64,000 nucleotides of DNA from an uncultured Acidimicrobiales bacterium (GCA_938029215.1 CALHFG010000018.1:4632-68631); one strand, 5' to 3'; shown: positions 24,536 to 37,448, counted from the stretch's first letter. Program-made: numbers and translations. The notes: generated by a model from the sequence alone, not told the origin.

Positions 24536-25783
24536 TTGACCACGACCGATACCCGATCGACCGATCGGCCGCAACGATCGGACCGACAGGTCATCGCGTA
24601 CCTCGCGTTCACGGGCATTCTGCTGGCCCTTGGTATCGATATTGCCCTCCCGGCATTCGACGAGATTCGGCCAGCGCTCGGACTGGCCGAAGGGTCGAAT
24701 CGCATTACCCAGGTCATCACCGTCTACTTCCTGGGCATGGGCCTTGGACAGTTGGTATGGGGCCCGGTTTCGGACCGGTTCGGCCGACAGCGGGCGATGC
24801 TCACTGGGGTCGGTCTCTATGTCGGGTGCGCTGTTGCTTCCGCACTCGCCCCGTCCTTCACCGTGCTCCTACTGGCTCGGTTCATCTGGGGACTCGGTGC
24901 AGCGGCGCCAACCGGCCTACGGCCAGCGATCGCACGCGATCTCTATCGCGGCGATCAGATGGCACGTGTCATGAGCATGGTTATGGCGATCTTCATGATC
25001 GGCCCCATTCTCGCTCCGTTGCTCGGTGAGGTGATCCTCAGCGTGGTGTCATGGCGGTACGTGTTTGTGTTCTGCGCTCTCGCTGGAGCCGGACAGATGG
25101 CCTGGACGGTCCAGTTTGGCGAAACCCTCCCGAAGGATCAGCGTCAGCCGTTGGAGTTCCGCACCACCGGCCGTGCGTTCGTTCGGGTCGTGACAACCCG
25201 ACAGACCATCGCCTACACCTTGGCCCTGGCGTTCGCCTATAGCGGGTTCTACGTCTACCTTGCCAGCACTCAACCGATCATGGACACCATCTACGGGCGG
25301 GCGAATCAGTTCGCGATCGTGTTCGGTGCATCGGGAATTCTCATGGCTGGAGCCTTCGTTCTGTCCAATCGCCTCTTCGCTCGAATCGGCACCGCCGCGA
25401 CCGTGAATGCGTCGGCGGTGGTCTTTATCGCACTGGCCACCGCTCAGCTCGCTCTCGTTCTGTCCGCGGGGGGTACACCATCGTTCTGGCCGTGGATCGC
25501 ACTGGTCACCGCAGCAAACCTGGTTGGCGCTCCATTAGGTCCTGCCGCATTCACTCTCGGCCTCGAACCAATGGGTGATTTGGCAGGCACCGCAGCCGGT
25601 GTGATGGGCTTTCTTTCCATGACGATCGCATCGGGCCTGTCCGCGATCGTGAACTCACAGATCGACCTCACCGTTACGCCAATGGCCCTCGGCTACGGCC
25701 TTTTCGGACTGCTGTCGCTGCTCGCCCTCATCCTTGCTCAGCGCCCTGGTCCAAAGGAACTGCGCAACACCGTCGACCCCTAG
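24536..25783 (+). CDS. MFS transporter, Bcr/CflA-like drug-resistance subfamily
   Basis: Contains VYFLGMGLGQLVWGPVSDRFGRQ (motif A region). 12 TM. Confidence 0.75.
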   Translation: MTTTDTRSTDRPQRSDRQVIAYLAFTGILLALGIDIALPAFDEIRPALGLAEGSNRITQVITVYFLGMGLGQLVWGPVSDRFGRQRAMLTGVGLYVGCAVASALAPSFTVLLLARFIWGLGAAAPTGLRPAIARDLYRGDQMARVMSMVMAIFMIGPILAPLLGEVILSVVSWRYVFVFCALAGAGQMAWTVQFGETLPKDQRQPLEFRTTGRAFVRVVTTRQTIAYTLALAFAYSGFYVYLASTQPIMDTIYGRANQFAIVFGASGILMAGAFVLSNRLFARIGTAATVNASAVVFIALATAQLALVLSAGGTPSFWPWIALVTAANLVGAPLGPAAFTLGLEPMGDLAGTAAGVMGFLSMTIASGLSAIVNSQIDLTVTPMALGYGLFGLLSLLALILAQRPGPKELRNTVDP

Positions 25784-28700
25784 GGTTCGTCGGACTCGGC
25801 ACGAGTCTTTGCCGCGGTCGATGCCAGAAGATCAATCGCCCGAGCCGCAAGCGGATCTTGCATCTCCAACGCCCCCGAAACTTTCTCGATCGCTTCAATC
25901 AATCGATCCAAATCACCGCTCGAGTGCGGTTTGGTTGCTTCGGCCGGGCCGCCAGAAGATGGCGCGACGCCGAATCCTTGCCCCATCGAGGTGCTGACAC
26001 CCTCGATTGCCGCTACCACCCTGGTGACGGGATCGCTGTCGCCGCCACCCAGTCGTTGCCGACGGTTGAACGTGTCCAAGATCTCATCCCAACGCACCCG
26101 TTGCTCATCGGTCATCCGGCCCCGGAGGTCTGCGAGTTTCAGCAGGTTCGCCTCGGCGGCGCCGGTCAGACTTTGACTCTCGGCGATGTAGTGGTCGTCT
26201 AGTAGTTGCTGGACTTCCTCCTCGGTCATCGCAGGAACAATCTTGGAGGCCAATCGGGCCATGTTGCGGTAGGAACCCTGGAGTAAGAAAGGCGGCTCGG
26301 TTCGGTAGGAATCTTCAGTTGCAGCCGACGCTATGTACTGTCGATTGACCGCCAACACCGTCTGCTGAGTGGTAATGAGGTGCCTCAACGCAGCGATCAT
26401 CTCGTTGATCTCCGCACTGCTGTATGAGCCGGCCAGTGTCGACTCTGGAAGAGGTTCGCCCGCAGCCGCACGAAGGAACGCATTGAAGTCTTCCGGTGCG
26501 CTACCTGCTAACGGCGCAAGAACAGGATTCGCGGTCAACGCATTCTCGAGATAGCTCCTGGCGAACACTTCGTCATTGCCGCCCACGACATCGCCAAGGT
26601 TGTAGGTGTCGGCTCGGTTGGCCAACATGTCGGGGATCTGGAAGCGTTCGCCGCTCTCGGTGTAAGGATTTCCCGCCATGATGACAGCGAAGCGTTTGCC
26701 CCGAAGGTCAAAAGTTCGACTCTCGCCGTTCCAGACACCCTCGATTCGCCGTTGCCCATCGGTCAGGGAAATGAACCGCTGCAGGAACTCCGGGTTTGTG
26801 TGCTGAATGTCATCGAGGTACAGAATGACGTTGGTGCCAACAGCAAACGACAGGTTGATCCGATCGATCTCGCGAGCTGCGGTGGCGCTGGGAGCCTGAC
26901 CCGGATCCAGCGACGTCACGTCGTGACCCAAACCAGGGCCCGAGACCTTTACCAACGCCATGCCCAGACGATCCGCCAGATACTCCACCAGCGTGGTCTT
27001 TCCATAGCCTGGCGGCGAGAGCAACATCAACAGCCCGGACCGAGCGCCGGTGCGATCTTCGACCGTGCCGATCTGGCGAGCCAGGTTGTCACCAATGAGC
27101 GGCAGGTACACCTTGTCGATCAGTTGGTTGCGAACAAAACCCTCCGGAACCGAGGGCTCGAGGTCGTCGATGCGCAGTCGTTTCCGGAGATCTTCCAGCG
27201 TGCTACGCCGGGCCTCTCCGAACCGCCGATGCGCAGGAACGACCCTGGCAACGTGGTCGGAGACCACGGCAAAGACGTCATCGACGCGCCCTTCAAGTGA
27301 CCCTCCCACAAGCGTGGGGTGCTGACCAATGAGGCCGGAGGCAACGAAACCTAGATCGGCGTCGTAGGTCCGTCGAGGAAGATCTGGCGTGAGCAGAGCA
27401 ACGGCAACTTCGTCAACGAATGGAAGCTCGTTGGGTTGCGCTGTTCTCTGCAGGAAGTCGGTGAGAACGACGCTTGCAGCTTCGGTATCGTCGCCGATGC
27501 GCTCGAGAAGCTCTGCGACCGCACGGTTCTTGCGCATCGACTGGGTCAGCCCAGCCGCGCCTGGAGTGGTAGCAAAGCCCAAACCCTTCGGGTGCGTGAG
27601 CTCGGACATGAGGTAGCGAGCCGCAGCTGCTGAGAGGTTGAAATCATCGCCGACCTCGACCGACAGCGCCGATGACACCGCTGCCGACACCGACAAGGCT
27701 TCGGCTGCTGTTCCTCGATCGATCCACTGCTGGCGTTTCGAGTCGTCGGCTGCGGCCCACGCCAGAATCGCCCGACCACGTTCGGCGCCACTGGTCACCA
27801 GCGGGCCAGCGGCCAGAAGAGCCGGGCCCGCGGCTTCAGCGATCTTGGCAGCGTCCACATCATGAACGCCACGGTCATATCCCTCGTCCAAACGGTTATC
27901 GACCTCGGACTGCATTATGGGCATGACCCGATCAGCGATCGTCTCGGTGGCGCCGGGCCCGGGTGCGGTGAAGAGCCGCTCCATCTGGTCGCGGTCGCTC
28001 ATGAGTCCCGCCATCACATCGAACGCCAGGAAGGTCGATCGGTACAGATCGGCGGTTTCGGAAGCAAAGGGCTGACTCCAGAGATCCTTCGCTCCGTCCA
28101 GTTCGTCTGAGTGCACCGGCAACCGCAGTTCGGTGCCTGTCAGGACTGCGTCTAGCTGATCTTCACTGGGCACGATGGTGAGTTCGCGGGAACGGCGATC
28201 CACGCTGAACCGATGTCGGCCCAGCTTTACCGCATCACCGTCATACAGGTCCTGTCGATCGCGAAGGCTACGGGCCGCGCCATCCCGGGCAGCTCCCAAA
28301 CGAGATCCCAGTTCATCAGCCCGCACGGGCTCACCAAGTTCACGGAGGTCTTCGACCAGTTTCCGGATCCGACCCACCATTGGATCGGCAGCGAAGAACC
28401 CGTTGATTTCGTCGGCAGAGCCCAACTGGGACGCCCGTTGAATAACTCGATCGAGGGTCCGGGTCGCAGCAGAAACCAGCCGTTCACTCCGTTGCTGCCG
28501 GTCATCGACGAGTTGTTGACGCTTTCCGCTCAGCGCCTCGGACACCTGATCGCGGCGCGATGCCAGTTCGTCAAGTTGTGCGTCGGTGCGTGGTCCGGCG
28601 GTTTCCAGCTGTTCCAACTGCAGCAGCAAACGAGCAAGCGCCTCATCACACTCTTCGGGAGTTCCTGCCCGACCAACCGCGGTGGCGATCGACTGTCCGA

Positions 28701-30813
28701 ACAGACCCAGTTCAGTGGCGAAGGCGGCACCTGTCTCGGACTCAATGAGCTCAGTGCGTCTCCCCTCTACACCGGCCCGAACCCGGTTCAGTTCGGCAAG
28801 CACACCGCTGACTTGCTCGAGCACATTGGTTCGGACGCGAGGATCATCGACAACGAGATCACTTACGGTTCCAGCGACCACGTCCATTGATCCCGCCACC
28901 GCGTCGACCTGTTCGAGCAGGTCGTTGGCCGTTACGGACGAGTCGGCTGTGGGAATCTGTGCTTCGATCGCAACCAGGCGATCGTGGTAGGGAGAAAAGG
29001 CGCCCTCACTGGCGAGGTGAGCCGCGGCCGTCTGCGCAAGAGCGTTGTAAGAACCCTCGGCGTCTTCGATCAGTTCATCCACCCGGTCGGTGTCGATCTG
29101 GCGTCGCTCGCGAACCGTGTGCAGATGACCGATCTCGGTGCGAACGGCGGCAAGGCCGTCGATAAAGGCCTCGGTTGTGCGAGGTGGGCTTATACGGAGG
29201 TCTTCGAGAACTCGCGATACCGAGTCTTCCGCTTCAGCCAGAGCCGAGCCCGCCGCACTCTGGATCTCCAGCATGCGCTCAAACTCGTCGATGACCTGCT
29301 CGGCCGCAAGACGAATGTTCTTAGCTGGGTCGGCCAGATCGCCTACTTCGGTGTCACTGGACCAGTGGTGAGCATCCACGAAGCGGCCGGCCGAGGTGAG
29401 CAGGTCGCCGTACACCTCCGAACTTGGCTCGACTGCTTCGACCAGGCGAGTGAGCGCCAACGCGTCGGCGATTCCTCGAACCAGGGCTGCGTTACCAATT
29501 CGATCCAGTTCGCTGGTCGAACGCGGTTGTGCCTCGTACCACTCGACGGTCGAGAAGGGGGTTGACCAAATTTGGATTGGATGAATTCTTGTCGGTTCGG
29601 CCTCTTCGCGGAACACCACCATGGTCCCGTCCTCGAAGAAGGTGTGGCCGTGACAGGTGATTGGGGCAGTAACTTCCTGACGCACAACGTTGTAGGGCAT
29701 CAAGATGCTCACACCGGTCTCGCGCTCATGGAACACATACAACACGTCTTCACCATTAGGTGAACGCTGGACTTCGAGCAGCTCCATGTTGGCCGGATCG
29801 AGATCAAAGGTGCGGACCTCACCGGTCTTCAAATACACCCCGGAGGGAAAGATGATCCCTTGACCGTCTGGCAACTGGCGGAAGGCTTGTCCTAGATCGT
29901 CGAGCCGAACCGCGGAGTGGGTTAGCAGGTTGATCACGTAGTAGCGATGGTGCAGTTCGCCGTAGGGCAAGACGTCGAGAATGATGAAGTCGCCGCCCGC
30001 CTTGGCCCAGCTGATCTGGCAATCCGCCAGAGATTGATCAGCATGCTCCATCGGGTCAGAGAGCAGTTCGGTGCCCTCTCCCCCGTCGTCAAACAGAATC
30101 TGCAGAGTGCCCTGGAGGGGGTTAATCACAATCCGGTCATCGATCGCCACGTGCGTGGCGCCCACGTGGTCAGCGCGGGTGGTCATCGTCCATTCGGCGT
30201 CGTGGTGTGCGGGAAACTTGTGGTCCCGCTCCCCTCGGGCGTCGAGATAGCGAAGCGTCTTGTTGACCTCAATCTGCCACCGCAACACGCGAATGTCGTT
30301 CTTGGCGCTACCGGTGCGAAACACAGCCAGGAGACGGTCCTGACGGCGATACAGCTGTTGGAGTTGGCTCTCCTTGAAATAGGTGTGAAGTTCGCCGAAA
30401 TCGCGATGAAACTGGTCGTCGTCGAGGGCGGAACCGGTGAGACCTTCAGGGTTCGGATTGAGGATGACGGTCCGCGGGTCGCTGGTGTCACGCTCGTAGT
30501 GATGCACCGCGAACACGTCTTCGCTCCGGATCTCGCTCTTGATCCCTGCTGCAACGTTGTATGCGAAGACCATCTGGTCACCGACCGTGGCGACATCTCG
30601 AGGGACGGCGTTGGCCTCGGTGCGGACCCGCTCGGTCCCCAACAGCTCGAGCTGAGAGGCACCGAAGGTTTCGAGGCGTCGCTCGTTCAGCGCATTTGCT
30701 CGGTCGGCCAAGTCCGCAGCCGCGGCTTCAAGCCGCCCACGCAACAGGTCATAGGTCGATTGTGAGACCGCTTGGTTCTCAGACACTGTTCGGTTGCCTT
30801 TGCTCGTTCTCAA
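25780..30813 (-). CDS. Giant (1677-aa) uncharacterised protein with a single AAA+ (AAA_5/MoxR-like) ATPase module in its C-terminal third and long predicted coiled-coil/helical regions
   Basis: Walker A LLSPPGYGKTT at about 26990-27012, Walker B ILYLDDIQ and a sensor-1-like AVIMAGNP. The N-terminal ~1250 aa has no motif I recognise. It starts at TTG 30813 (SD GGAGGG 12 nt upstream), or alternatively GTG 30789. It lies 212 nt downstream of flotillin on the same strand. Confidence 0.6.
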   Translation of the reverse strand: MRTSKGNRTVSENQAVSQSTYDLLRGRLEAAAADLADRANALNERRLETFGASQLELLGTERVRTEANAVPRDVATVGDQMVFAYNVAAGIKSEIRSEDVFAVHHYERDTSDPRTVILNPNPEGLTGSALDDDQFHRDFGELHTYFKESQLQQLYRRQDRLLAVFRTGSAKNDIRVLRWQIEVNKTLRYLDARGERDHKFPAHHDAEWTMTTRADHVGATHVAIDDRIVINPLQGTLQILFDDGGEGTELLSDPMEHADQSLADCQISWAKAGGDFIILDVLPYGELHHRYYVINLLTHSAVRLDDLGQAFRQLPDGQGIIFPSGVYLKTGEVRTFDLDPANMELLEVQRSPNGEDVLYVFHERETGVSILMPYNVVRQEVTAPITCHGHTFFEDGTMVVFREEAEPTRIHPIQIWSTPFSTVEWYEAQPRSTSELDRIGNAALVRGIADALALTRLVEAVEPSSEVYGDLLTSAGRFVDAHHWSSDTEVGDLADPAKNIRLAAEQVIDEFERMLEIQSAAGSALAEAEDSVSRVLEDLRISPPRTTEAFIDGLAAVRTEIGHLHTVRERRQIDTDRVDELIEDAEGSYNALAQTAAAHLASEGAFSPYHDRLVAIEAQIPTADSSVTANDLLEQVDAVAGSMDVVAGTVSDLVVDDPRVRTNVLEQVSGVLAELNRVRAGVEGRRTELIESETGAAFATELGLFGQSIATAVGRAGTPEECDEALARLLLQLEQLETAGPRTDAQLDELASRRDQVSEALSGKRQQLVDDRQQRSERLVSAATRTLDRVIQRASQLGSADEINGFFAADPMVGRIRKLVEDLRELGEPVRADELGSRLGAARDGAARSLRDRQDLYDGDAVKLGRHRFSVDRRSRELTIVPSEDQLDAVLTGTELRLPVHSDELDGAKDLWSQPFASETADLYRSTFLAFDVMAGLMSDRDQMERLFTAPGPGATETIADRVMPIMQSEVDNRLDEGYDRGVHDVDAAKIAEAAGPALLAAGPLVTSGAERGRAILAWAAADDSKRQQWIDRGTAAEALSVSAAVSSALSVEVGDDFNLSAAAARYLMSELTHPKGLGFATTPGAAGLTQSMRKNRAVAELLERIGDDTEAASVVLTDFLQRTAQPNELPFVDEVAVALLTPDLPRRTYDADLGFVASGLIGQHPTLVGGSLEGRVDDVFAVVSDHVARVVPAHRRFGEARRSTLEDLRKRLRIDDLEPSVPEGFVRNQLIDKVYLPLIGDNLARQIGTVEDRTGARSGLLMLLSPPGYGKTTLVEYLADRLGMALVKVSGPGLGHDVTSLDPGQAPSATAAREIDRINLSFAVGTNVILYLDDIQHTNPEFLQRFISLTDGQRRIEGVWNGESRTFDLRGKRFAVIMAGNPYTESGERFQIPDMLANRADTYNLGDVVGGNDEVFARSYLENALTANPVLAPLAGSAPEDFNAFLRAAAGEPLPESTLAGSYSSAEINEMIAALRHLITTQQTVLAVNRQYIASAATEDSYRTEPPFLLQGSYRNMARLASKIVPAMTEEEVQQLLDDHYIAESQSLTGAAEANLLKLADLRGRMTDEQRVRWDEILDTFNRRQRLGGGDSDPVTRVVAAIEGVSTSMGQGFGVAPSSGGPAEATKPHSSGDLDRLIEAIEKVSGALEMQDPLAARAIDLLASTAAKTRAESDEP

Positions 30814-31025
30814 ACAACAAGTCTTCCCTCCGAACCCTCAACGACTCGCCATGAGCGAGGGACCGAGGTTGCCGCCGCGCCAGCAAGGCAGCACGCAACG
30901 ACACCAAGACTGTTTGAGCGGAGCGAGTCCGGAGCGACCCGACCTGATCAATGTCGAACGAGCCCGGGAACGGTTCCGGAAAGAGAGCGTTCGCCACGGT
31001 CCGCTTGAGGCGAGCGAAGGCAATG

Positions 31026-32975
31026 TCACTGTCCGAGGCGCTTCATGAGGTCGGCTACGGAAAGGTCACGTATGCCTTCGGCTCCCAAACCACTGATCGC
31101 GTCGGCGATCTTGGCGATGAGATCCTCATCGCCGTTGGTGTAGCGCTCAGCGATCGCCGACAACGTGTCCGACTTCTCGATCATGCCGTCGACCTGCTTG
31201 CCCTGGCCAATGGAGCCCATGAGCTTGTCGACGAACATGTCGGATCCGCCGACGATGTCGATGTTGGCCGCTTCGAGGCCGGCCTTCATTGCGCTGGCCT
31301 GAGCGGTCGCGACGCCAACCTGGGCTTCGACCTCGGCCAAACGAACCGACGTGTCGGCTTCGAGCCGGCGAATGAACTCTTCGTGTTCCTGCCCAACGCC
31401 TTCGAGCTCTCGCATGGCAGCTGCCTTGTCGGTGAGACCCTTGGCCTCGCCCTTCAGCTTGGCTTCGGTGACCTCGGCTTCGGCAAGTCCTGCATCACGA
31501 AGGGTGGATGCCTCGGCTTCGCCCAGTTCACGGACCGCGACGGCTCGAGCCTTGTCGATGTTCACCTGAGCGAGACCGAGTTTCTCATCGGCCCGTGCTC
31601 GGGCCTCCATTACTTCCACCTGAGCAAGTCCAGTGGCTGCGCTCTCGGCTTGGTTACCTTCGGCGAGACGGATCTTGGCCTGGGCCTCGAGCTGGCTCGA
31701 TTCCAGTTCGGCCTTGGCCATACGGACCTGTTCAGCCGCACGGTGTTCTGCCGCGGCCTCGGCTGCTTCGGCTGCTTTGATGTCCTTCACCAACGCCGCC
31801 TGAGCATCTCCCTCGGCCAGGATGACTGCAGCATCCTTCTGACGGTTCGCTTCTTCGACCACCCGAAGGCTGGCGATTTCTTCTTCTTGCTCGGCCACGG
31901 TTTTCTCGACCGCAACTCGGCTGCGGCGAAGATCGGCTATTCCCGCCAACTCTTCTTCCAACGCTTTCTCGGCTGCAAGCGTCTCGACCTTTCGGCTCAT
32001 GTCTTCAAGTTCGGCCGCCTTGCGAACACGCTCGGACTCGACCGCGAGTACCCGCTCGCGGTTCTTGGCTGCAACGGCGACTTCTCGTTCGAGGTTCTCG
32101 CGCTCAATACCAAGCTTTTGATCCACCTCAAGAGCTGCCATTTCAGCCTTCAGACGTTCCTCGGACCGAATCGCCTCTGTGGTGGCTTCTTCGCGGGCCT
32201 TAACGGTTTCGACCTCTCGGCTCTGACGGGCCTCCGCATCAGCTTGCTGACGCTCTAGTTCCAGCACCGCCTCACGAGTCTCAACGTTTTTCGCCGTGAT
32301 CATCTTGCGCTCATCGTTCTGAGCATTATTGGTGGCCACGTGTTCGGTAGCGGTCAGTTCGGTGATCTTTCGGATTCCCTGGGCGTCCAGGATGTTGTTG
32401 GAGTCCAGCGCACTAAGAGGCGTCTGCTCCAGGTAGTCGATGGCGACATCTTCAAGGCTGTAGCCGTTGAGGTCGGTTCCGATGACCTCGATGATCCGGT
32501 CACGGAAGTTGGCGCGCTCGGTGTAGAGCGAGATGAAATCCATCTGCTTGCCAACGGTCTTCAATGCCTCAGAGAACTTGGCCGCGAAGAGTTCCTCGAG
32601 CGTTGCGATGTTGCTGGCTCGTTCACAACCGATGGCCTGGGCCACCTTGATCACGTCCTCCTTCGCTTTGTTCACACGAACGAAGAAGTTCACCTTGATG
32701 TCGGCCCGAATGTTGTCCTGGCAGATGAGGCCCTCGGTGTTGCGGCGGTCGATCTCGATCGTCTTGACCGAGATGTCCATGGTCTCAGCCTTGTGAATCA
32801 CTGGCAGAACCATTTGGCCGGTAAAGGTGACATCGACCTTCTTCTGGCCACTGACCACGAGCGCGTAGCCCTGCGGGACCTTGCGATAGAAGCTGGCGAA
32901 GAGCAAGCCCACGACAACTGCCAGCAGCAGAAAGGCGACGACGACCGCTATCGCTACGAAGATGATGGTTTCCAT
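31026..32975 (-). CDS. Flotillin (SPFH/band-7 family, YqiK/FloT-like)
   Basis: An N-terminal membrane anchor and SPFH domain (MVLPVIHKAETMDISVKTIEIDRR...ADIKVNFFVRV), followed by a long Ala/Glu-rich coiled coil (EAEARQSREVETVKAREEA...). Confidence 0.8.
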   Translation of the reverse strand: METIIFVAIAVVVAFLLLAVVVGLLFASFYRKVPQGYALVVSGQKKVDVTFTGQMVLPVIHKAETMDISVKTIEIDRRNTEGLICQDNIRADIKVNFFVRVNKAKEDVIKVAQAIGCERASNIATLEELFAAKFSEALKTVGKQMDFISLYTERANFRDRIIEVIGTDLNGYSLEDVAIDYLEQTPLSALDSNNILDAQGIRKITELTATEHVATNNAQNDERKMITAKNVETREAVLELERQQADAEARQSREVETVKAREEATTEAIRSEERLKAEMAALEVDQKLGIERENLEREVAVAAKNRERVLAVESERVRKAAELEDMSRKVETLAAEKALEEELAGIADLRRSRVAVEKTVAEQEEEIASLRVVEEANRQKDAAVILAEGDAQAALVKDIKAAEAAEAAAEHRAAEQVRMAKAELESSQLEAQAKIRLAEGNQAESAATGLAQVEVMEARARADEKLGLAQVNIDKARAVAVRELGEAEASTLRDAGLAEAEVTEAKLKGEAKGLTDKAAAMRELEGVGQEHEEFIRRLEADTSVRLAEVEAQVGVATAQASAMKAGLEAANIDIVGGSDMFVDKLMGSIGQGKQVDGMIEKSDTLSAIAERYTNGDEDLIAKIADAISGLGAEGIRDLSVADLMKRLGQ

Positions 32976-33140
32976 TCCGGTTGTTTCCTTTCAGAAGAAA
33001 CGTTGGTAGTAAATCGGCTGTGTTCAGGGAGTACTTAGCCAACGGACGGCGAGGCCGATCCGAGGGACCCTGGCGAGAACATTTTGTTGTTTTGGGCGAG
33101 TTGAGGCGAGATCAGTGATTGACCTCATCGGTGAAAGTCG

Positions 33141-33788
33141 TCAGCTGACCGCTTCCACGTCCGGCGAGATTTGAAACAGCCCGTCGCCGTCAACGGTGAC
33201 GATGAGGGCTTGAGATCCTTGGCGAAGCTCGTTGGCTTGTTCGCATCGAACCTGAATCAGATGGCTTCCGTGTTCGGAGTCCACAACCTCGGCTTGGCCA
33301 AAGGTGGAACTGACCGATCCGGTCTGAACAATACAGATCCGTCCAATGAGATCGTCCCGGCCAGGGGCTGGGTTGGGAGCAAACACCGGGCGTAGCGCTT
33401 GGCCAATGCGTCCGGTAATCAACCCGGAGACGATCAGAGCGCCAAGAAAGATAGCGAGAGCGGGAAGGAAGGACGCACTGCCGCTATCGGTCGTCAACGA
33501 AGTGGCGATCACGCTCACCGCCCAGCCAAACAGGCTGAGCAGCGTAAATGTGAGCGACAGCGGAATGTGATGAAGGTGGAACGTACGGAGCAGACCGCTC
33601 AGCCCGGTGCCGACATCGCTTTCGAGTTCCAGATCCAAATCGAGATCAACATCAAGATCCAGGTCAAGACCGTCGCCGCCTCCCCCGCCGAGAAGCGTGG
33701 TAAGAAGCCAGTAGCCGACCGAGATCAGAAGGAGCGTGGTGAAGATGACCGTTGGAAACCCAAACGAAACTTCGAGAACTCTGCCCAC
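33141..33788 (-). CDS. NfeD/YqiJ-like membrane protein (the usual flotillin partner), with a DLDLDVDLDLDLE acidic repeat
   Basis: Two hydrophobic segments and a C-terminal OB-fold-like region (GQAEVVDSEHGSHLIQVRCEQ...ALIVTVDG). It sits immediately upstream of the flotillin gene on the same strand. Confidence 0.65.
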   Translation of the reverse strand: MGRVLEVSFGFPTVIFTTLLLISVGYWLLTTLLGGGGGDGLDLDLDVDLDLDLELESDVGTGLSGLLRTFHLHHIPLSLTFTLLSLFGWAVSVIATSLTTDSGSASFLPALAIFLGALIVSGLITGRIGQALRPVFAPNPAPGRDDLIGRICIVQTGSVSSTFGQAEVVDSEHGSHLIQVRCEQANELRQGSQALIVTVDGDGLFQISPDVEAVS

Positions 33789-34132: not shown

Positions 34133-34990
34133 CTAACCGACATCCCGACGCTCGAAGACCGCCACTGCGACGACGGTCACCAGTCCGCAGATGAACAGCA
34201 ACAGCGCCAGGTTGTCCCATTGCCATCCTTCCCGCAGCGGAAACTGGCCAAGTGCCTGGTAGTAGAGCGAAAACATCTTGAACGGTTCAAGCCAAGAGAC
34301 CAACCCGCCCAGGCCGTTCAGTAGATACCCCGCCGCGAACAACACCGTTGCCGCCCCTACGGCTGAGCCGCGACGACCGGTCATCGCTCCAACCAGCAGC
34401 GCCACGAGACCGTGGACCACTACCAACAATGAAACAGCGAGAACGGTTGCCGCGAGAGACGTCCAGTCGATGTCCAACGCAACAAATCCATTCGCCACCA
34501 GGACGACCAGGCCTGGCACCGACGCCAGTCCCAGTGTGGTGACGCCGAGCGACAAGGCCTTCTCCACAACAACTCTCCAGCGACGGATCGGGTTGGCGAG
34601 AAGCAGGTCCATCGTGCCGTCGTGTTGCTCGCTCCCCATGCTTGCACCAAATCCGATCGCCCAGATAGACAACAGCAGCGGCAGGACAAGGTTGAAGAGC
34701 TCAGCGGACAGGTATCCCGTCCCGCTGGTGAGATCAAACGCGTCTTCGCCTCCCAAGAACTCCTTCAGCGCGTCCGGGTATTCTTCGGCCGCCTGCGCGA
34801 ACCCCGCGGAATCTCGGATGGTCGGGAACAGGGAAACGATCAGGACGGTGTAGACCAACAACCCAATCGCCCAGACCGCCATCGATCGCCAACGGTCGAG
34901 CACAAAACGCTCGGTCAGAGCCAGTGGGCTGCGGCGCTGTTCGACAAGGCCCGGAAGCGCAGTACCGATGCCCGATGCCTTGATATCCAC
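34133..34990 (-). CDS. ABC-2 type transporter permease
   Basis: A 6-TM permease whose start overlaps the stop of the upstream ABC ATPase (translational coupling). Confidence 0.6.
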   Translation of the reverse strand: MDIKASGIGTALPGLVEQRRSPLALTERFVLDRWRSMAVWAIGLLVYTVLIVSLFPTIRDSAGFAQAAEEYPDALKEFLGGEDAFDLTSGTGYLSAELFNLVLPLLLSIWAIGFGASMGSEQHDGTMDLLLANPIRRWRVVVEKALSLGVTTLGLASVPGLVVLVANGFVALDIDWTSLAATVLAVSLLVVVHGLVALLVGAMTGRRGSAVGAATVLFAAGYLLNGLGGLVSWLEPFKMFSLYYQALGQFPLREGWQWDNLALLLFICGLVTVVAVAVFERRDVG

Positions 34991-35928
34991 TACTGCCCCA
35001 CCTTCTGAATTTCTCGGCCGGTGCGATCAAAGGACTGCAGAAATACGTCCTCAAGCGACGCCGGCTGGCTGATGACATCGAGCACTCTGAACCGAGCGAG
35101 CCGCCGAACCAGATGTTCAAAGGACCCAGTTACTTGAAGCTCGAAGATGGTCTGCCCCACTACCGAGGGGACAACCTGTACCGCACCGACCCCATCGAGC
35201 CCGGCAATCTCCTCTGCCTGCACGACCTCATCGAGAACAAGGCGAACGCTGCGGTGGTGTAGCTCTGCAAGATCCGCGATCGCACGAACGCTTTCCAGGC
35301 GACCCTCGAGCACGGTTCCGACTCGATCGCAGACGTCCTGCACCTCGGAGAGTTCGTGCGAGGATACGAAAACCGTGGCCCCGAGTGCGGTCGTTTCATG
35401 GACCACCGAACGGAACTCACGCCGCACCACTGGGTCGAGGCCCGACGTGGGTTCGTCCAGAATCAGAAGGCTCGGACGATGACTGAACGCTTGAATCAAG
35501 CCAACTTTCTGTTGGTTCCCGGTGGAGAGCTCTCCAATTGGGCGGTGCGGGTCCAGCGCGAATCGTTCAATGAGCTCGTCGGTGAACGAGGCATCGTGGC
35601 GTCCACGAAGTCGACCGAGCCAGTCGAAGAATTCATCCGCAGTCAGACCCTCATAGAGCCGAATGTCGGAGGGCAGGTAGCCGGTGTGGGTGTGGATTTC
35701 CACGTTGGAGTGTCGAACGTTGCGTCCGAAAATTCGTGCCGATCCCGATGTGGGACGAATGAGATCGAGAAGCAGCCGGATCGTGGTGGTCTTTCCCGCC
35801 CCGTTGGGGCCGATCAAGCCGAACACCTCTCCAGCAAAGACCTCGAGGTCCAGGTCCTCGACGCCTCGCGATTGGCCGTATCGCTTCGTGAGTCGGCAGG
35901 TCTCAATTGCTGTTCCCACGTCCACCAC
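34990..35928 (-). CDS. ABC transporter ATP-binding protein
   Basis: Walker A GLIGPNGAGKTT, ABC signature LSTGNQQKV and Walker B LILDEPTSGLD. Confidence 0.85.
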   Translation of the reverse strand: MVDVGTAIETCRLTKRYGQSRGVEDLDLEVFAGEVFGLIGPNGAGKTTTIRLLLDLIRPTSGSARIFGRNVRHSNVEIHTHTGYLPSDIRLYEGLTADEFFDWLGRLRGRHDASFTDELIERFALDPHRPIGELSTGNQQKVGLIQAFSHRPSLLILDEPTSGLDPVVRREFRSVVHETTALGATVFVSSHELSEVQDVCDRVGTVLEGRLESVRAIADLAELHHRSVRLVLDEVVQAEEIAGLDGVGAVQVVPSVVGQTIFELQVTGSFEHLVRRLARFRVLDVISQPASLEDVFLQSFDRTGREIQKVGQ

Positions 35929-36782
35929 TACTCCGGTACGACAACGGTGACTGACGTCGGATGATGAGCGAGTGAGGTTGTGGTTGAGCCAAGCAAGAGA
36001 TGCGCGACTCCACGGTGACCTCGGGCCCCGATCACCAGCGCGTCGGCGTGCTGTGCCGCCCTTCGTAGCTCGAGCCTCGGGTCGCCGATATGGGCATCAA
36101 CCTCGATGATGTTCTCGATCTCCTCGGTGGTAGCGACATCGTGAACCGTTCGCTCGGCGACTGCGGTGAGCTCGGCAATCAGCTCGGAGTCGGGAGGGCT
36201 CGGGACACCAAAGGCGTGAACGATCCGCATGAAAGTCGCCATGACGACGACCGTTCCGCCGGGTTCAACGTGATCCAGCGCCCACCTCAGGGCAGCCTTG
36301 GAGTTCTGAGAGCCATCGACCCCGACGATGAGGCGAGACAAGCCACCGGAGGAACGATCGGGCGGGATTAGGGCAACCGGAACCTTCGAGTGCTTGACGC
36401 AATGGGAGCCGGTCGAACCGAGAACGGCTTCGGCGAGAGCGTTTCGAGACCGACATCCAACGACCAGTAGGTCGGCACCGAGTGCGGCATCGACCAAGGT
36501 GCGCCCGGCCGAGCCCTGCACGGTCCGGTGTTGCTTCGCAAGGGAGGGGTCAGTCGAGGAGAGCAGCACCATCGCTCGCGCCTCAGCTGATTCACGAAAC
36601 ACGTCCGGGTTGTAGGCAACAGATGTGGCCATTCCGAAACCATCGAAGATTGGCCCGACCGAAAACGCCGTCAGCGTGCGTACCTGTCCGACCTGCTTTT
36701 CGTTGCGAAGGGCCCATTCCAGGGCCTGGCGCGACGCCGCCGATCCATCAATCCCAACAACTACGTGGCTCTTTGTGGTCAT
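35928..36782 (-). CDS. Universal stress protein (tandem UspA domains)
   Basis: Two VVVGIDGS...LLVVGCRSR...GSTGSHCVKH repeats. Confidence 0.7.
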   Translation of the reverse strand: MTTKSHVVVGIDGSAASRQALEWALRNEKQVGQVRTLTAFSVGPIFDGFGMATSVAYNPDVFRESAEARAMVLLSSTDPSLAKQHRTVQGSAGRTLVDAALGADLLVVGCRSRNALAEAVLGSTGSHCVKHSKVPVALIPPDRSSGGLSRLIVGVDGSQNSKAALRWALDHVEPGGTVVVMATFMRIVHAFGVPSPPDSELIAELTAVAERTVHDVATTEEIENIIEVDAHIGDPRLELRRAAQHADALVIGARGHRGVAHLLLGSTTTSLAHHPTSVTVVVPE

Positions 36783-36927
36783 ACCTCATGGTGCTGGTAC
36801 GCCCAGCTTCCCCGGCAGGGCCCTTGGTCACTTCTGGTCCCGACGTTTTCTCATCGACCTATCAGAATTAGGGCGATCTCAACCGCGCCGCGACCTCAAC
36901 CACTCGCTGATCGTCAATATTCTGTGA

Positions 36928-37448
36928 CGATGACCACGATGCGCGGCGGCCTGCCTACTTCCGGGGACTTGTTTGCCTCCGGCGGCATGTTAGATTCCGG
37001 GGAGCCACTAGGCTCTCGCCCCAGTCGACAGTCAACGACCGAAGCCTCGCTGCGCGGCGCGCTAGGCGCAGAGCTCGCCAACATCGGCGGCGGACGAACC
37101 CAACTGTCAAGGTGGCTCGACGGTCGGGTCGCTCAAGACCAAATCGGCGACATCGTGCTCGTGTTCAGCGAACTTCTTACCAACGCGGTCGACGCGGCGC
37201 CGGCCGAGACCGAGGTGGCATATTTTGCTGCCGCCACGGCGCAACAGATCAAGCTCACCGTCGTGAATTCCCGATCGGAGCTGGGACCTGTCCTTCCCGT
37301 TGCGATGCCCAACCCTGAAGCAGAGTGTGGGCGAGGTCTGGCCCTGGCCGAGGTCTACTCCGACAAGTTGGAGATCCTCATGAACCTCGACGTCATCGAG
37401 GTGTGCGCAACCTTCATGCTTCCTTCGAAGGATCACTTCGCCGGCTAG
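36928..37448 (+). CDS. GHKL/HATPase_c-like anti-sigma regulatory factor (RsbW-like) protein
   Basis: Contains SELLTNAVDAA ... ECGRGLALAEVYSD. An internal ATG (MTTMRGG) was chosen because the ORF opening at 36765 overlaps the divergent Usp. Confidence 0.45.

Follow-up and report, generated by a model that had tools for sequence, protein, structure and literature searches.

According to Hinderhofer et al. (2009, PMC2636767), YqiJ-YqiK of Escherichia coli and YuaF-FloT of Bacillus subtilis are operons that pair an NfeD-type gene with a flotillin (SPFH2) gene. A larger arrangement has been described by Ravi et al. (mSystems 2024; bioRxiv 2020; PMC11237479), namely an operon with a CesT/Tir-PspA dyad, a YqiJ/YuaF-type protein with three transmembrane (TM) segments, a band-7/flotillin protein and a novel beta-propeller/coiled-coil AAA+ ATPase, with abbreviated operons without PspA being more widely distributed. 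The locus analysed here lies on a stretch of 64,000 nt (the window) from an uncultured Acidimicrobiales bacterium (GCA_938029215.1, CALHFG010000018.1:4632-68631). Here, three consecutive minus-strand genes encode an NfeD-like membrane protein, a flotillin and a soluble AAA+ protein of 1677 residues, hereafter the giant ATPase. All three open reading frames (ORFs) proposed in the first-pass annotation of the window are present according to ORF calls and translations, and the 212-nt spacer it reported is correct with the TTG start:

33141..33788, minus strand: ORF of the NfeD-like membrane protein, 215 aa (ORF call and translation)
31026..32975, minus strand: ORF of the flotillin-type SPFH protein, 649 aa (ORF call and translation)
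30814..31025, minus strand: spacer between flotillin and giant ATPase, 212 nt (TTG start) or 239 nt (GTG start at 30786)
25780..30813, minus strand: ORF of the giant soluble ATPase, 1677 aa, TTG start

In the public record the giant ATPase starts at the GTG at 30786, giving a protein of 1668 aa. In the window, the three proteins agree with the operon of Ravi et al. in domain architecture and gene order, but the CesT/Tir-PspA dyad and the PLD hydrolase of that operon are missing. The same order, YqiJ/YuaF TM protein, Band-7 plus coiled-coil plus flotillin, and beta-propeller plus coiled-coil plus AAA, is listed for Dokdonia donghaensis (ANH61663.1 anchor) in Table S3 of that paper. Since no PspA-like ORF occurs in the 64 kb, the cassette in the window is the abbreviated form (no pspA) of this operon, and thus a new instance of a described type. 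The first-pass annotation knew of no described partnership between a flotillin and a giant AAA+ protein; this does not hold, as both the operon and its abbreviated form are already in PMC11237479. Its broader suggestion of an uncharacterised membrane-microdomain ATPase system fares better: a conserved flotillin-linked ATPase unit is supported, but it is known from comparative genomics and is not new to the literature. The coverage in PMC11237479 consists of one paragraph, which gives no counts and does not classify the ATPase. The present analysis adds synteny counts in two directions, a distinct flotillin subfamily, an assignment of the ATPase to the MoxR class and a DD Walker B motif. The ATPase is not mentioned in the SPFH operon survey of Hinderhofer et al. 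or in a 2026 study of SPFH proteins in Pseudomonas aeruginosa, and literature searches on DUF3686/PF12458, on flotillin with 'DNA repair ATPase' and on YqiK/YqiJ/ATPase found no paper.

With the giant ATPase as query, 185,579 GTDB genomes, one per species, were scanned, which gave at least 592 confirmed matches, from which the best 80 loci were kept. These include Actinomycetota, Myxococcota, Gammaproteobacteria, Acidobacteriota, Thermoanaerobaculia and metagenome-assembled genomes (MAGs) of Clostridia and Planctomycetota, and loci with both giant ATPase and flotillin were found in at least eight phyla. Flotillin and NfeD-like genes were detected at the 80 loci by a six-frame hidden Markov model (HMM) search with the window proteins. 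A flotillin homologue (E from 1e-83 to 1e-120) lies on the same strand as the giant ATPase at 76 of the 80 loci, which is all 76 with enough upstream DNA, the other four having less than 1.5 kb upstream each. It is located immediately 5' of the giant ATPase in 75 of these 76, with a median of 114 nt between the flotillin stop and the first aligned residue of the giant ATPase, and 37 nt or less in a quarter of the loci. When metagenomes were scanned conversely, starting from flotillin, 60 loci had at least 1 kb of downstream DNA, and the giant ATPase follows downstream on the same strand in 55. The NfeD-like homologue is found 5' of flotillin at 68 of the 80 genome loci and 59 of 68 metagenome loci. 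After all-against-all clustering of the remaining ORFs, no further gene was conserved in more than 17 of the 80 loci. Annotated examples of the trio occur in Deinococcus, Hymenobacter (Bacteroidota) and on Pseudomonas fluorescens plasmid pQBR103.

Plasmids show the same pattern. Out of 72,556 records, 13 carry the giant ATPase. Flotillin matches were obtained in 58 records, and those over the full length (35–57% identity, E<=1e-89) are in exactly these 13. All other plasmid flotillins reach 24–34% identity at best, with E>=1e-27 and mostly over the SPFH region, and their records are without the giant ATPase. The E. coli plasmid matches are presumably YqiK, the records listing no feature there. 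Pairwise identities of giant ATPase and flotillin are correlated (r=0.93, 67 loci), although shared phylogeny confounds this value, with means of 54% for the giant ATPase and 57% for flotillin. It is near certain from these comparisons that the three genes form one conserved cassette, collinear and co-diverging across phyla, and the window flotillin represents a distinct subfamily that is paired nearly one-to-one with the giant ATPase. Coincidental adjacency, which the first-pass annotation had linked to a lack of synteny with flotillin and NfeD in other genomes, is rejected, as every one of the 76 informative genome loci, 55 of the 60 metagenome loci and all 13 plasmids have the pair.

Among the 76 genome loci, a single split was observed: in a Myxococcales MAG (L070, 3573-9865), about 6.4 kb with several long ORFs lies between flotillin and the giant ATPase.

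The flotillin has a single N-terminal TM segment (strongly hydrophobic, residues 1-34) and a long E/A/R-rich segment between the SPFH domain and the conserved 'IDIVGG' segment, corresponding to a long charged helical region:

32886-32975, minus strand: N-terminal TM segment
32439-32882, minus strand: SPFH/Band_7 domain, residues 32-179
~31176-31298, minus strand: conserved C-terminal segment around 'IDIVGG'

It shares with YqiK and FloT the N-terminal anchor, the SPFH domain, the long coiled coil and a preceding gene for an NfeD-like multi-TM protein. This gene lies directly 5' in the window, as is typical of SPFH/flotillin operons, with a gap of 165 nt from the end of the NfeD-like gene to the flotillin gene. 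Across the 76 loci, which cover several phyla, a mean of 66–77% of positions in the SPFH region are identical to the window residue. The full-length 649-aa protein gave zero Pfam matches, and the Flot domain of Pfam was not found at E<=1 or E<=10 in the full length or in fragments. When residues 1-219 were scanned alone, Band_7/SPFH (PF01145) was detected with E=8.7e-13 (49.1 bits, cutoff 23.6), which confirms the SPFH domain initially proposed. That it is seen only in the isolated N-terminal 219 aa is probably due to the composition-bias filter of HMMER reacting to the E/A-rich region, and the same filter may explain the missing Flot match. A sequence search of the PDB with flotillin gave only a prohibitin coiled-coil match (E~7e-3). 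The precomputed public annotation of flotillin and the NfeD-like protein is '-' (for the window and for L083), and RefSeq names the Streptomyces flotillin homologues 'flotillin family protein'.

The NfeD-like protein has about three to four hydrophobic segments, among them residues ~4-34, 75-99 and 102-129. Its layout is an N-terminal TM segment, an acidic D/L-rich loop, about two further TM segments and a C-terminal beta-rich domain:

33180-33350, minus strand: C-terminal beta-rich (OB-like) domain of the NfeD-like protein, residues ~147-203

This C-terminal part matches YqiJ_OB weakly (E=1.6e-3, 18.9 bits), below the Pfam cutoff of 25.4. Among 12 homologues, two match YqiJ_OB and one matches NfeD in Pfam, and a profile search found no relative in the PDB. 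Because the YqiJ_OB score is below the cutoff, the NfeD/YqiJ-like label is based more on the protein's architecture and position and on the literature than on Pfam. The Hymenobacter homologue is annotated as 'DUF1449 family protein', DUF1449 being an earlier name of PF07290. Since neither the full-length flotillin nor the NfeD-like protein has a Pfam match, neighbourhood pipelines based on domains miss the link between flotillin and the ATPase. At five Streptomyces loci (L032, L051, L055, L066 and L080), no recognisable NfeD-like ORF and no 5' plus-strand ORF with TM segments was found 5' of flotillin. The NfeD matches at the remaining Streptomyces loci are weak (E~1e-28 to 1e-32).

For the giant ATPase, AlphaFold2 (AF2) models were built with 66 homologues in two pieces, residues 10-1200 and 1190-1677, with a predicted local distance difference test (pLDDT) score of 88 and 86, respectively, and of about 90 over the DUF3686 part. 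Confidence is low in the tail past residue ~1600. The following features were assigned:

29365..30714, minus strand: DUF3686 (PF12458), residues 34-483, Pfam E=1.5e-153, profile positions 1-448 of 448
28246..29547, minus strand: helical-bundle region, residues ~423-856
28750-29001, minus strand: DUF7902 (Pfam), residues 605-688
27391..28233, minus strand: small beta domain and second helical domain, residues ~861-1141, AF2 pLDDT >90 for most
26656..27030, minus strand: MoxR/AAA_5-type AAA+ core (Pfam AAA_5/AAA), residues 1262-1386
26992-27018, minus strand: Walker A SPPGYGKTT, residues 1266-1274
26809-26823, minus strand: Walker B LYLDD (DD replaces DE), residues 1331-1335
26662-26679, minus strand: sensor-1 MAGNPY, residues 1379-1384
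26608-26634, minus strand: PDMLANRAD motif just beyond the AAA+ core range, residues 1394-1402
25783..26655, minus strand: AAA+ lid and C-terminal helical extension, residues ~1387-1677 (AF2 model)
26260-26280, minus strand: invariant 'QGSYRNM' in the C-terminal extension, residues 1512-1518

In the models, an N-terminal helix is followed by a beta-rich domain of about 26 strands, some 430 residues of helical bundles, the small beta domain, the second helical domain, the AAA+ alpha/beta core with its lid and the helical C-terminal extension. The helical domains total about 700 residues. Foldseek matched the propeller-like part to beta-propellers or propeller-plus-helical proteins (clathrin heavy chain, IFT-A, DDB1 BPB and PON1), with probabilities of about 1 but low template modelling scores. 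The N-terminal DUF3686 domain is therefore modelled as a short helix followed by a beta-propeller rather than as a coiled coil. The first-pass annotation had proposed a long helical or coiled-coil N-terminus, to be checked with HHpred or AlphaFold, especially on residues 1-1250, and this is only half right: the predicted propeller takes up the first ~480 residues and the helical bundles follow after it, with the MoxR-type AAA+ part further on. Its 'AAA_5-like motor' is borne out by the Pfam AAA_5/AAA match and the MoxR-like fold. Of 606 representative matches to DUF3686, 150 were listed, and nearly all of these have the domain at the N-terminus; in three, which are longer proteins, it starts at residue 204-667.

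The AAA+ fold is nearest to MoxR, midasin and dynein structures, with CbbQ and NorQ being the closest. Walker A, with GYGKT intact, sensor-1, the conserved Arg motifs, PDMLANRAD and QGSYRNM are invariant across the aligned homologues, and a further invariant motif, 'DEGYxRGVHDxDA', is found at residues ~976-988 within the beta and second helical part. PDB sequence searches with the giant ATPase gave just weak matches at the level of Walker A, and an NCBIfam scan only sub-threshold RuvB and TrlF noise. No hydrophobic (TM) segment was detected in the protein, and no peptidase family was matched in Pfam. Homologues number at least 1733, and the source databases call most of them 'DNA repair ATPase'. 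The stop-to-stop ORFs are ~5.3–6.4 kb in Myxococcota and delta-proteobacterial loci (L002, L004, L021, L023, L026, L041, L053 and L056) versus ~5.0 kb in actinobacteria, which implies lineage-specific extensions.

PspA is the only recurrent fourth gene, and its linkage is lineage-specific. In 24 of 80 metagenome loci (~30%), the gene next to the NfeD-like gene on its 5' side is a same-strand PspA/IM30 gene, and six gammaproteobacterial genome loci have PspA directly upstream as well. On the Hymenobacter plasmid, a 'Tir chaperone' gene and then PspA precede the trio. On pQBR103 (L081, record 85.5-104.4 kb), the trio comes immediately after a yjf-like cluster of PspA, rhomboid, DUF2491, DUF350, DUF1190 and a glutathionylspermidine-synthase-like gene. 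This plasmid is a 425-kb environmental megaplasmid of P. fluorescens SBW25, and the cassette is followed there by an MvaT/MvaU-type H-NS-like gene.

Known couplings of scaffolds to AAA+ machines offer a frame for what the cassette might do. HflK/C, QmcA-YbbJ and flotillin domes are SPFH assemblies, and FtsH is a membrane-anchored AAA+ protease of the classic clade. As in HflK/C-FtsH and the prohibitin-m-AAA protease, an SPFH scaffold would be coupled functionally to an AAA+ machine; unlike FtsH, the giant ATPase has a MoxR-class AAA+ module and neither a TM segment nor a peptidase family match, and an FtsH-like protease partner is rejected for the latter two reasons. Vps4 is a classic-clade AAA protein with an MIT domain, and PspA/Vipp1 are bacterial relatives of ESCRT-III. 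The cassette resembles ESCRT-III/Vps4 in that about 30% of the metagenome loci combine an AAA+ gene with pspA, which encodes a membrane-remodelling polymer, but the giant ATPase belongs to another AAA+ clade and its constant partner is flotillin, not PspA. An ESCRT analogy was drawn earlier for PspA-AAA+ associations (PMC11237479).

By analogy with these systems, we somewhat favour ATP-driven remodelling or chaperoning by the giant ATPase at a flotillin scaffold, in envelope stress or membrane maintenance. Flotillin would oligomerise with the NfeD-like protein into a membrane-attached scaffold at the cytoplasmic face, as solved SPFH assemblies suggest, and the giant ATPase might oligomerise via its AAA+ ring, as MoxR and other AAA+ enzymes do. 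It could then dock on the flotillin scaffold via its propeller and helical arms and, with ATP as the energy source, drive the assembly, disassembly or remodelling of the scaffold itself, of PspA polymers or of membrane proteins that are its clients, as part of an envelope-stress or membrane-maintenance response. A narrower version, put forward only tentatively, is that the giant ATPase might serve one flotillin subfamily as a dedicated machine for ATP-driven assembly and disassembly, and might act likewise on PspA/ESCRT-III-like polymers where pspA is linked. If true, bacteria would have in it a functional counterpart of Vps4 or NSF that acts on membrane scaffolds, with its propeller and helical arms gripping the flotillin dome somewhat like coat proteins such as clathrin or IFT-A.

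To our knowledge, bacterial flotillins, although widely studied, have no established energy-consuming partner, and we know of no dedicated ATPase for PspA/IM30 polymers in bacteria. In the cassette, a MoxR-class motor of 1,600–2,000 residues goes almost one-to-one with a single, highly conserved flotillin subfamily. Among the carriers of the cassette are the tractable Streptomyces, Myxococcus, Proteus mirabilis, Vibrio campbellii and P. fluorescens (pQBR103), which makes it a testable entry to ATP-dependent remodelling of membrane scaffolds.

Several points weigh against remodelling at a flotillin scaffold. Five metagenome loci (L120, L128, L134, L147 and L148) have the NfeD-like and flotillin genes with no adjacent giant ATPase in the downstream DNA examined, which was ~2.7 kb for L134 and ~8 kb for the other four; the gene could have been lost, relocated or replaced there. 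The correlation of pairwise identities carries the phylogenetic confounding given above, and we infer a physical contact between flotillin and the giant ATPase only from gene order. The Walker B sequence LYLDD is invariant in 66 of 66 aligned homologues, with Asp at the site of the catalytic Glu, which suggests that hydrolysis may be slow, or regulatory or regulated, or that the catalytic residue comes from elsewhere. MoxR AAA+ ATPases such as CbbQ, NorQ and RavA are ~300–500 aa and usually paired with a VWA protein. The giant ATPase differs from them in the C-terminal position of its module in 1677 aa with propeller and helical arms, besides the DD motif, and no VWA partner was found among the scanned window proteins or as a conserved neighbour in more than 17 of the 80 loci. 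The PspA profile detected no PspA-like ORF in the window. The spacer of 212–239 nt is longer than in most relatives, so that an internal promoter is possible, and no experimental work on any cassette member was found in the literature.

Of the other explanations, the one that survives best overlaps with scaffold remodelling: the giant ATPase might, in the manner of MoxR proteins, be the chaperone that matures one particular membrane enzyme or complex, with flotillin just concentrating the client and neither flotillin nor PspA polymers being remodelled. Its closest structures, CbbQ and NorQ, mature Rubisco and nitric-oxide reductase, and a chaperone-like role in assembling membrane complexes was proposed for band-7/AAA+ partners (PMC11237479). 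However, neither a client gene nor a VWA adaptor is conserved beside the cassette, and the near one-to-one link to one flotillin subfamily suggests that flotillin itself is partner or substrate, which leaves this explanation possible but rather doubtful.

An anti-phage or conflict system of the abortive-infection type, in which the AAA+ protein would sense infection and flotillin and NfeD act at the membrane, is unlikely. The patchy distribution (592 or more matches in the scan of 185,579 species genomes), the presence on megaplasmids and chromids including pQBR103, and a self-contained cassette in variable genomic context would all fit such a system, and MoxR-type ATPases are known in conflict systems (PMC7159879). 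Against this, PADLOC matches none of the three proteins, a search of phage genomes gave zero matches, and the window neighbours are transporters and Usp. The recurrent partner is PspA/IM30 together with polyamine and membrane genes, not defence genes. Moreover, the cross-phylum conservation expressed in the mean identities of both proteins is high, unlike that of fast-diversifying immune genes.

A true DNA repair ATPase, with a flotillin adjacency devoid of functional meaning, is highly improbable and was rejected: the Pfam text for DUF3686 ('ATPase involved in DNA repair'), the PGAP/UniRef homologue name 'DNA repair ATPase' and weak RuvB P-loop matches (E~3e-3) point that way, but the adjacency kept across phyla contradicts it, no nuclease, helicase or DNA-binding domain was found in domain and PDB scans, the RuvB likeness is limited to ~35–50 residues around Walker A and is equalled in score by classic AAA proteins such as Rix7 and p97, structural comparison places the protein near MoxR, midasin and dynein rather than RuvB, and no literature was found on DUF3686 or PF12458. 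We suspect that the name goes back to a coiled-coil resemblance to SMC/SbcC-type entries and was passed on from there; we found no support for it, and it is a probable database misnomer, spreading across thousands of genomes.

Within the spacer at 30814-31025, no terminator-like or sigma-70-like site was found, the promoter scan using an E. coli-type consensus, and no Rfam family was matched. Its RNA fold energy is no better than that of shuffled sequences (z=0.22), and the small ORFs within it appear spurious. The minus-strand genes 5' of the cassette encode an ABC-2 permease, an ABC ATPase and a Usp with tandem domains (34133-36782, 36765-37448). The ABC-2 exporter and Usp of the first-pass annotation are thus present according to the Pfam scan, but they are not conserved neighbours: after clustering over the 80 loci, none of the ABC-2 permease, ABC ATPase, Usp and HATPase_c_2 genes of the window was conserved beside the cassette elsewhere. 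The HATPase_c_2 gene (anti-sigma-factor-like kinase) is divergent, on the plus strand 5' of the cassette, and a convergent MFS gene lies 3' of it. In a 74%-identical relative (L165:5350-6000), the spacer between flotillin and giant ATPase is ~650 nt long and contains at least four copies of a repeat translating as 'VVPPGGVQTPRRL...', which the gene caller made into a 167-aa ORF. This repeat looks like an intergenic insertion resembling a repetitive extragenic palindrome (REP) or miniature inverted-repeat transposable element (MITE).

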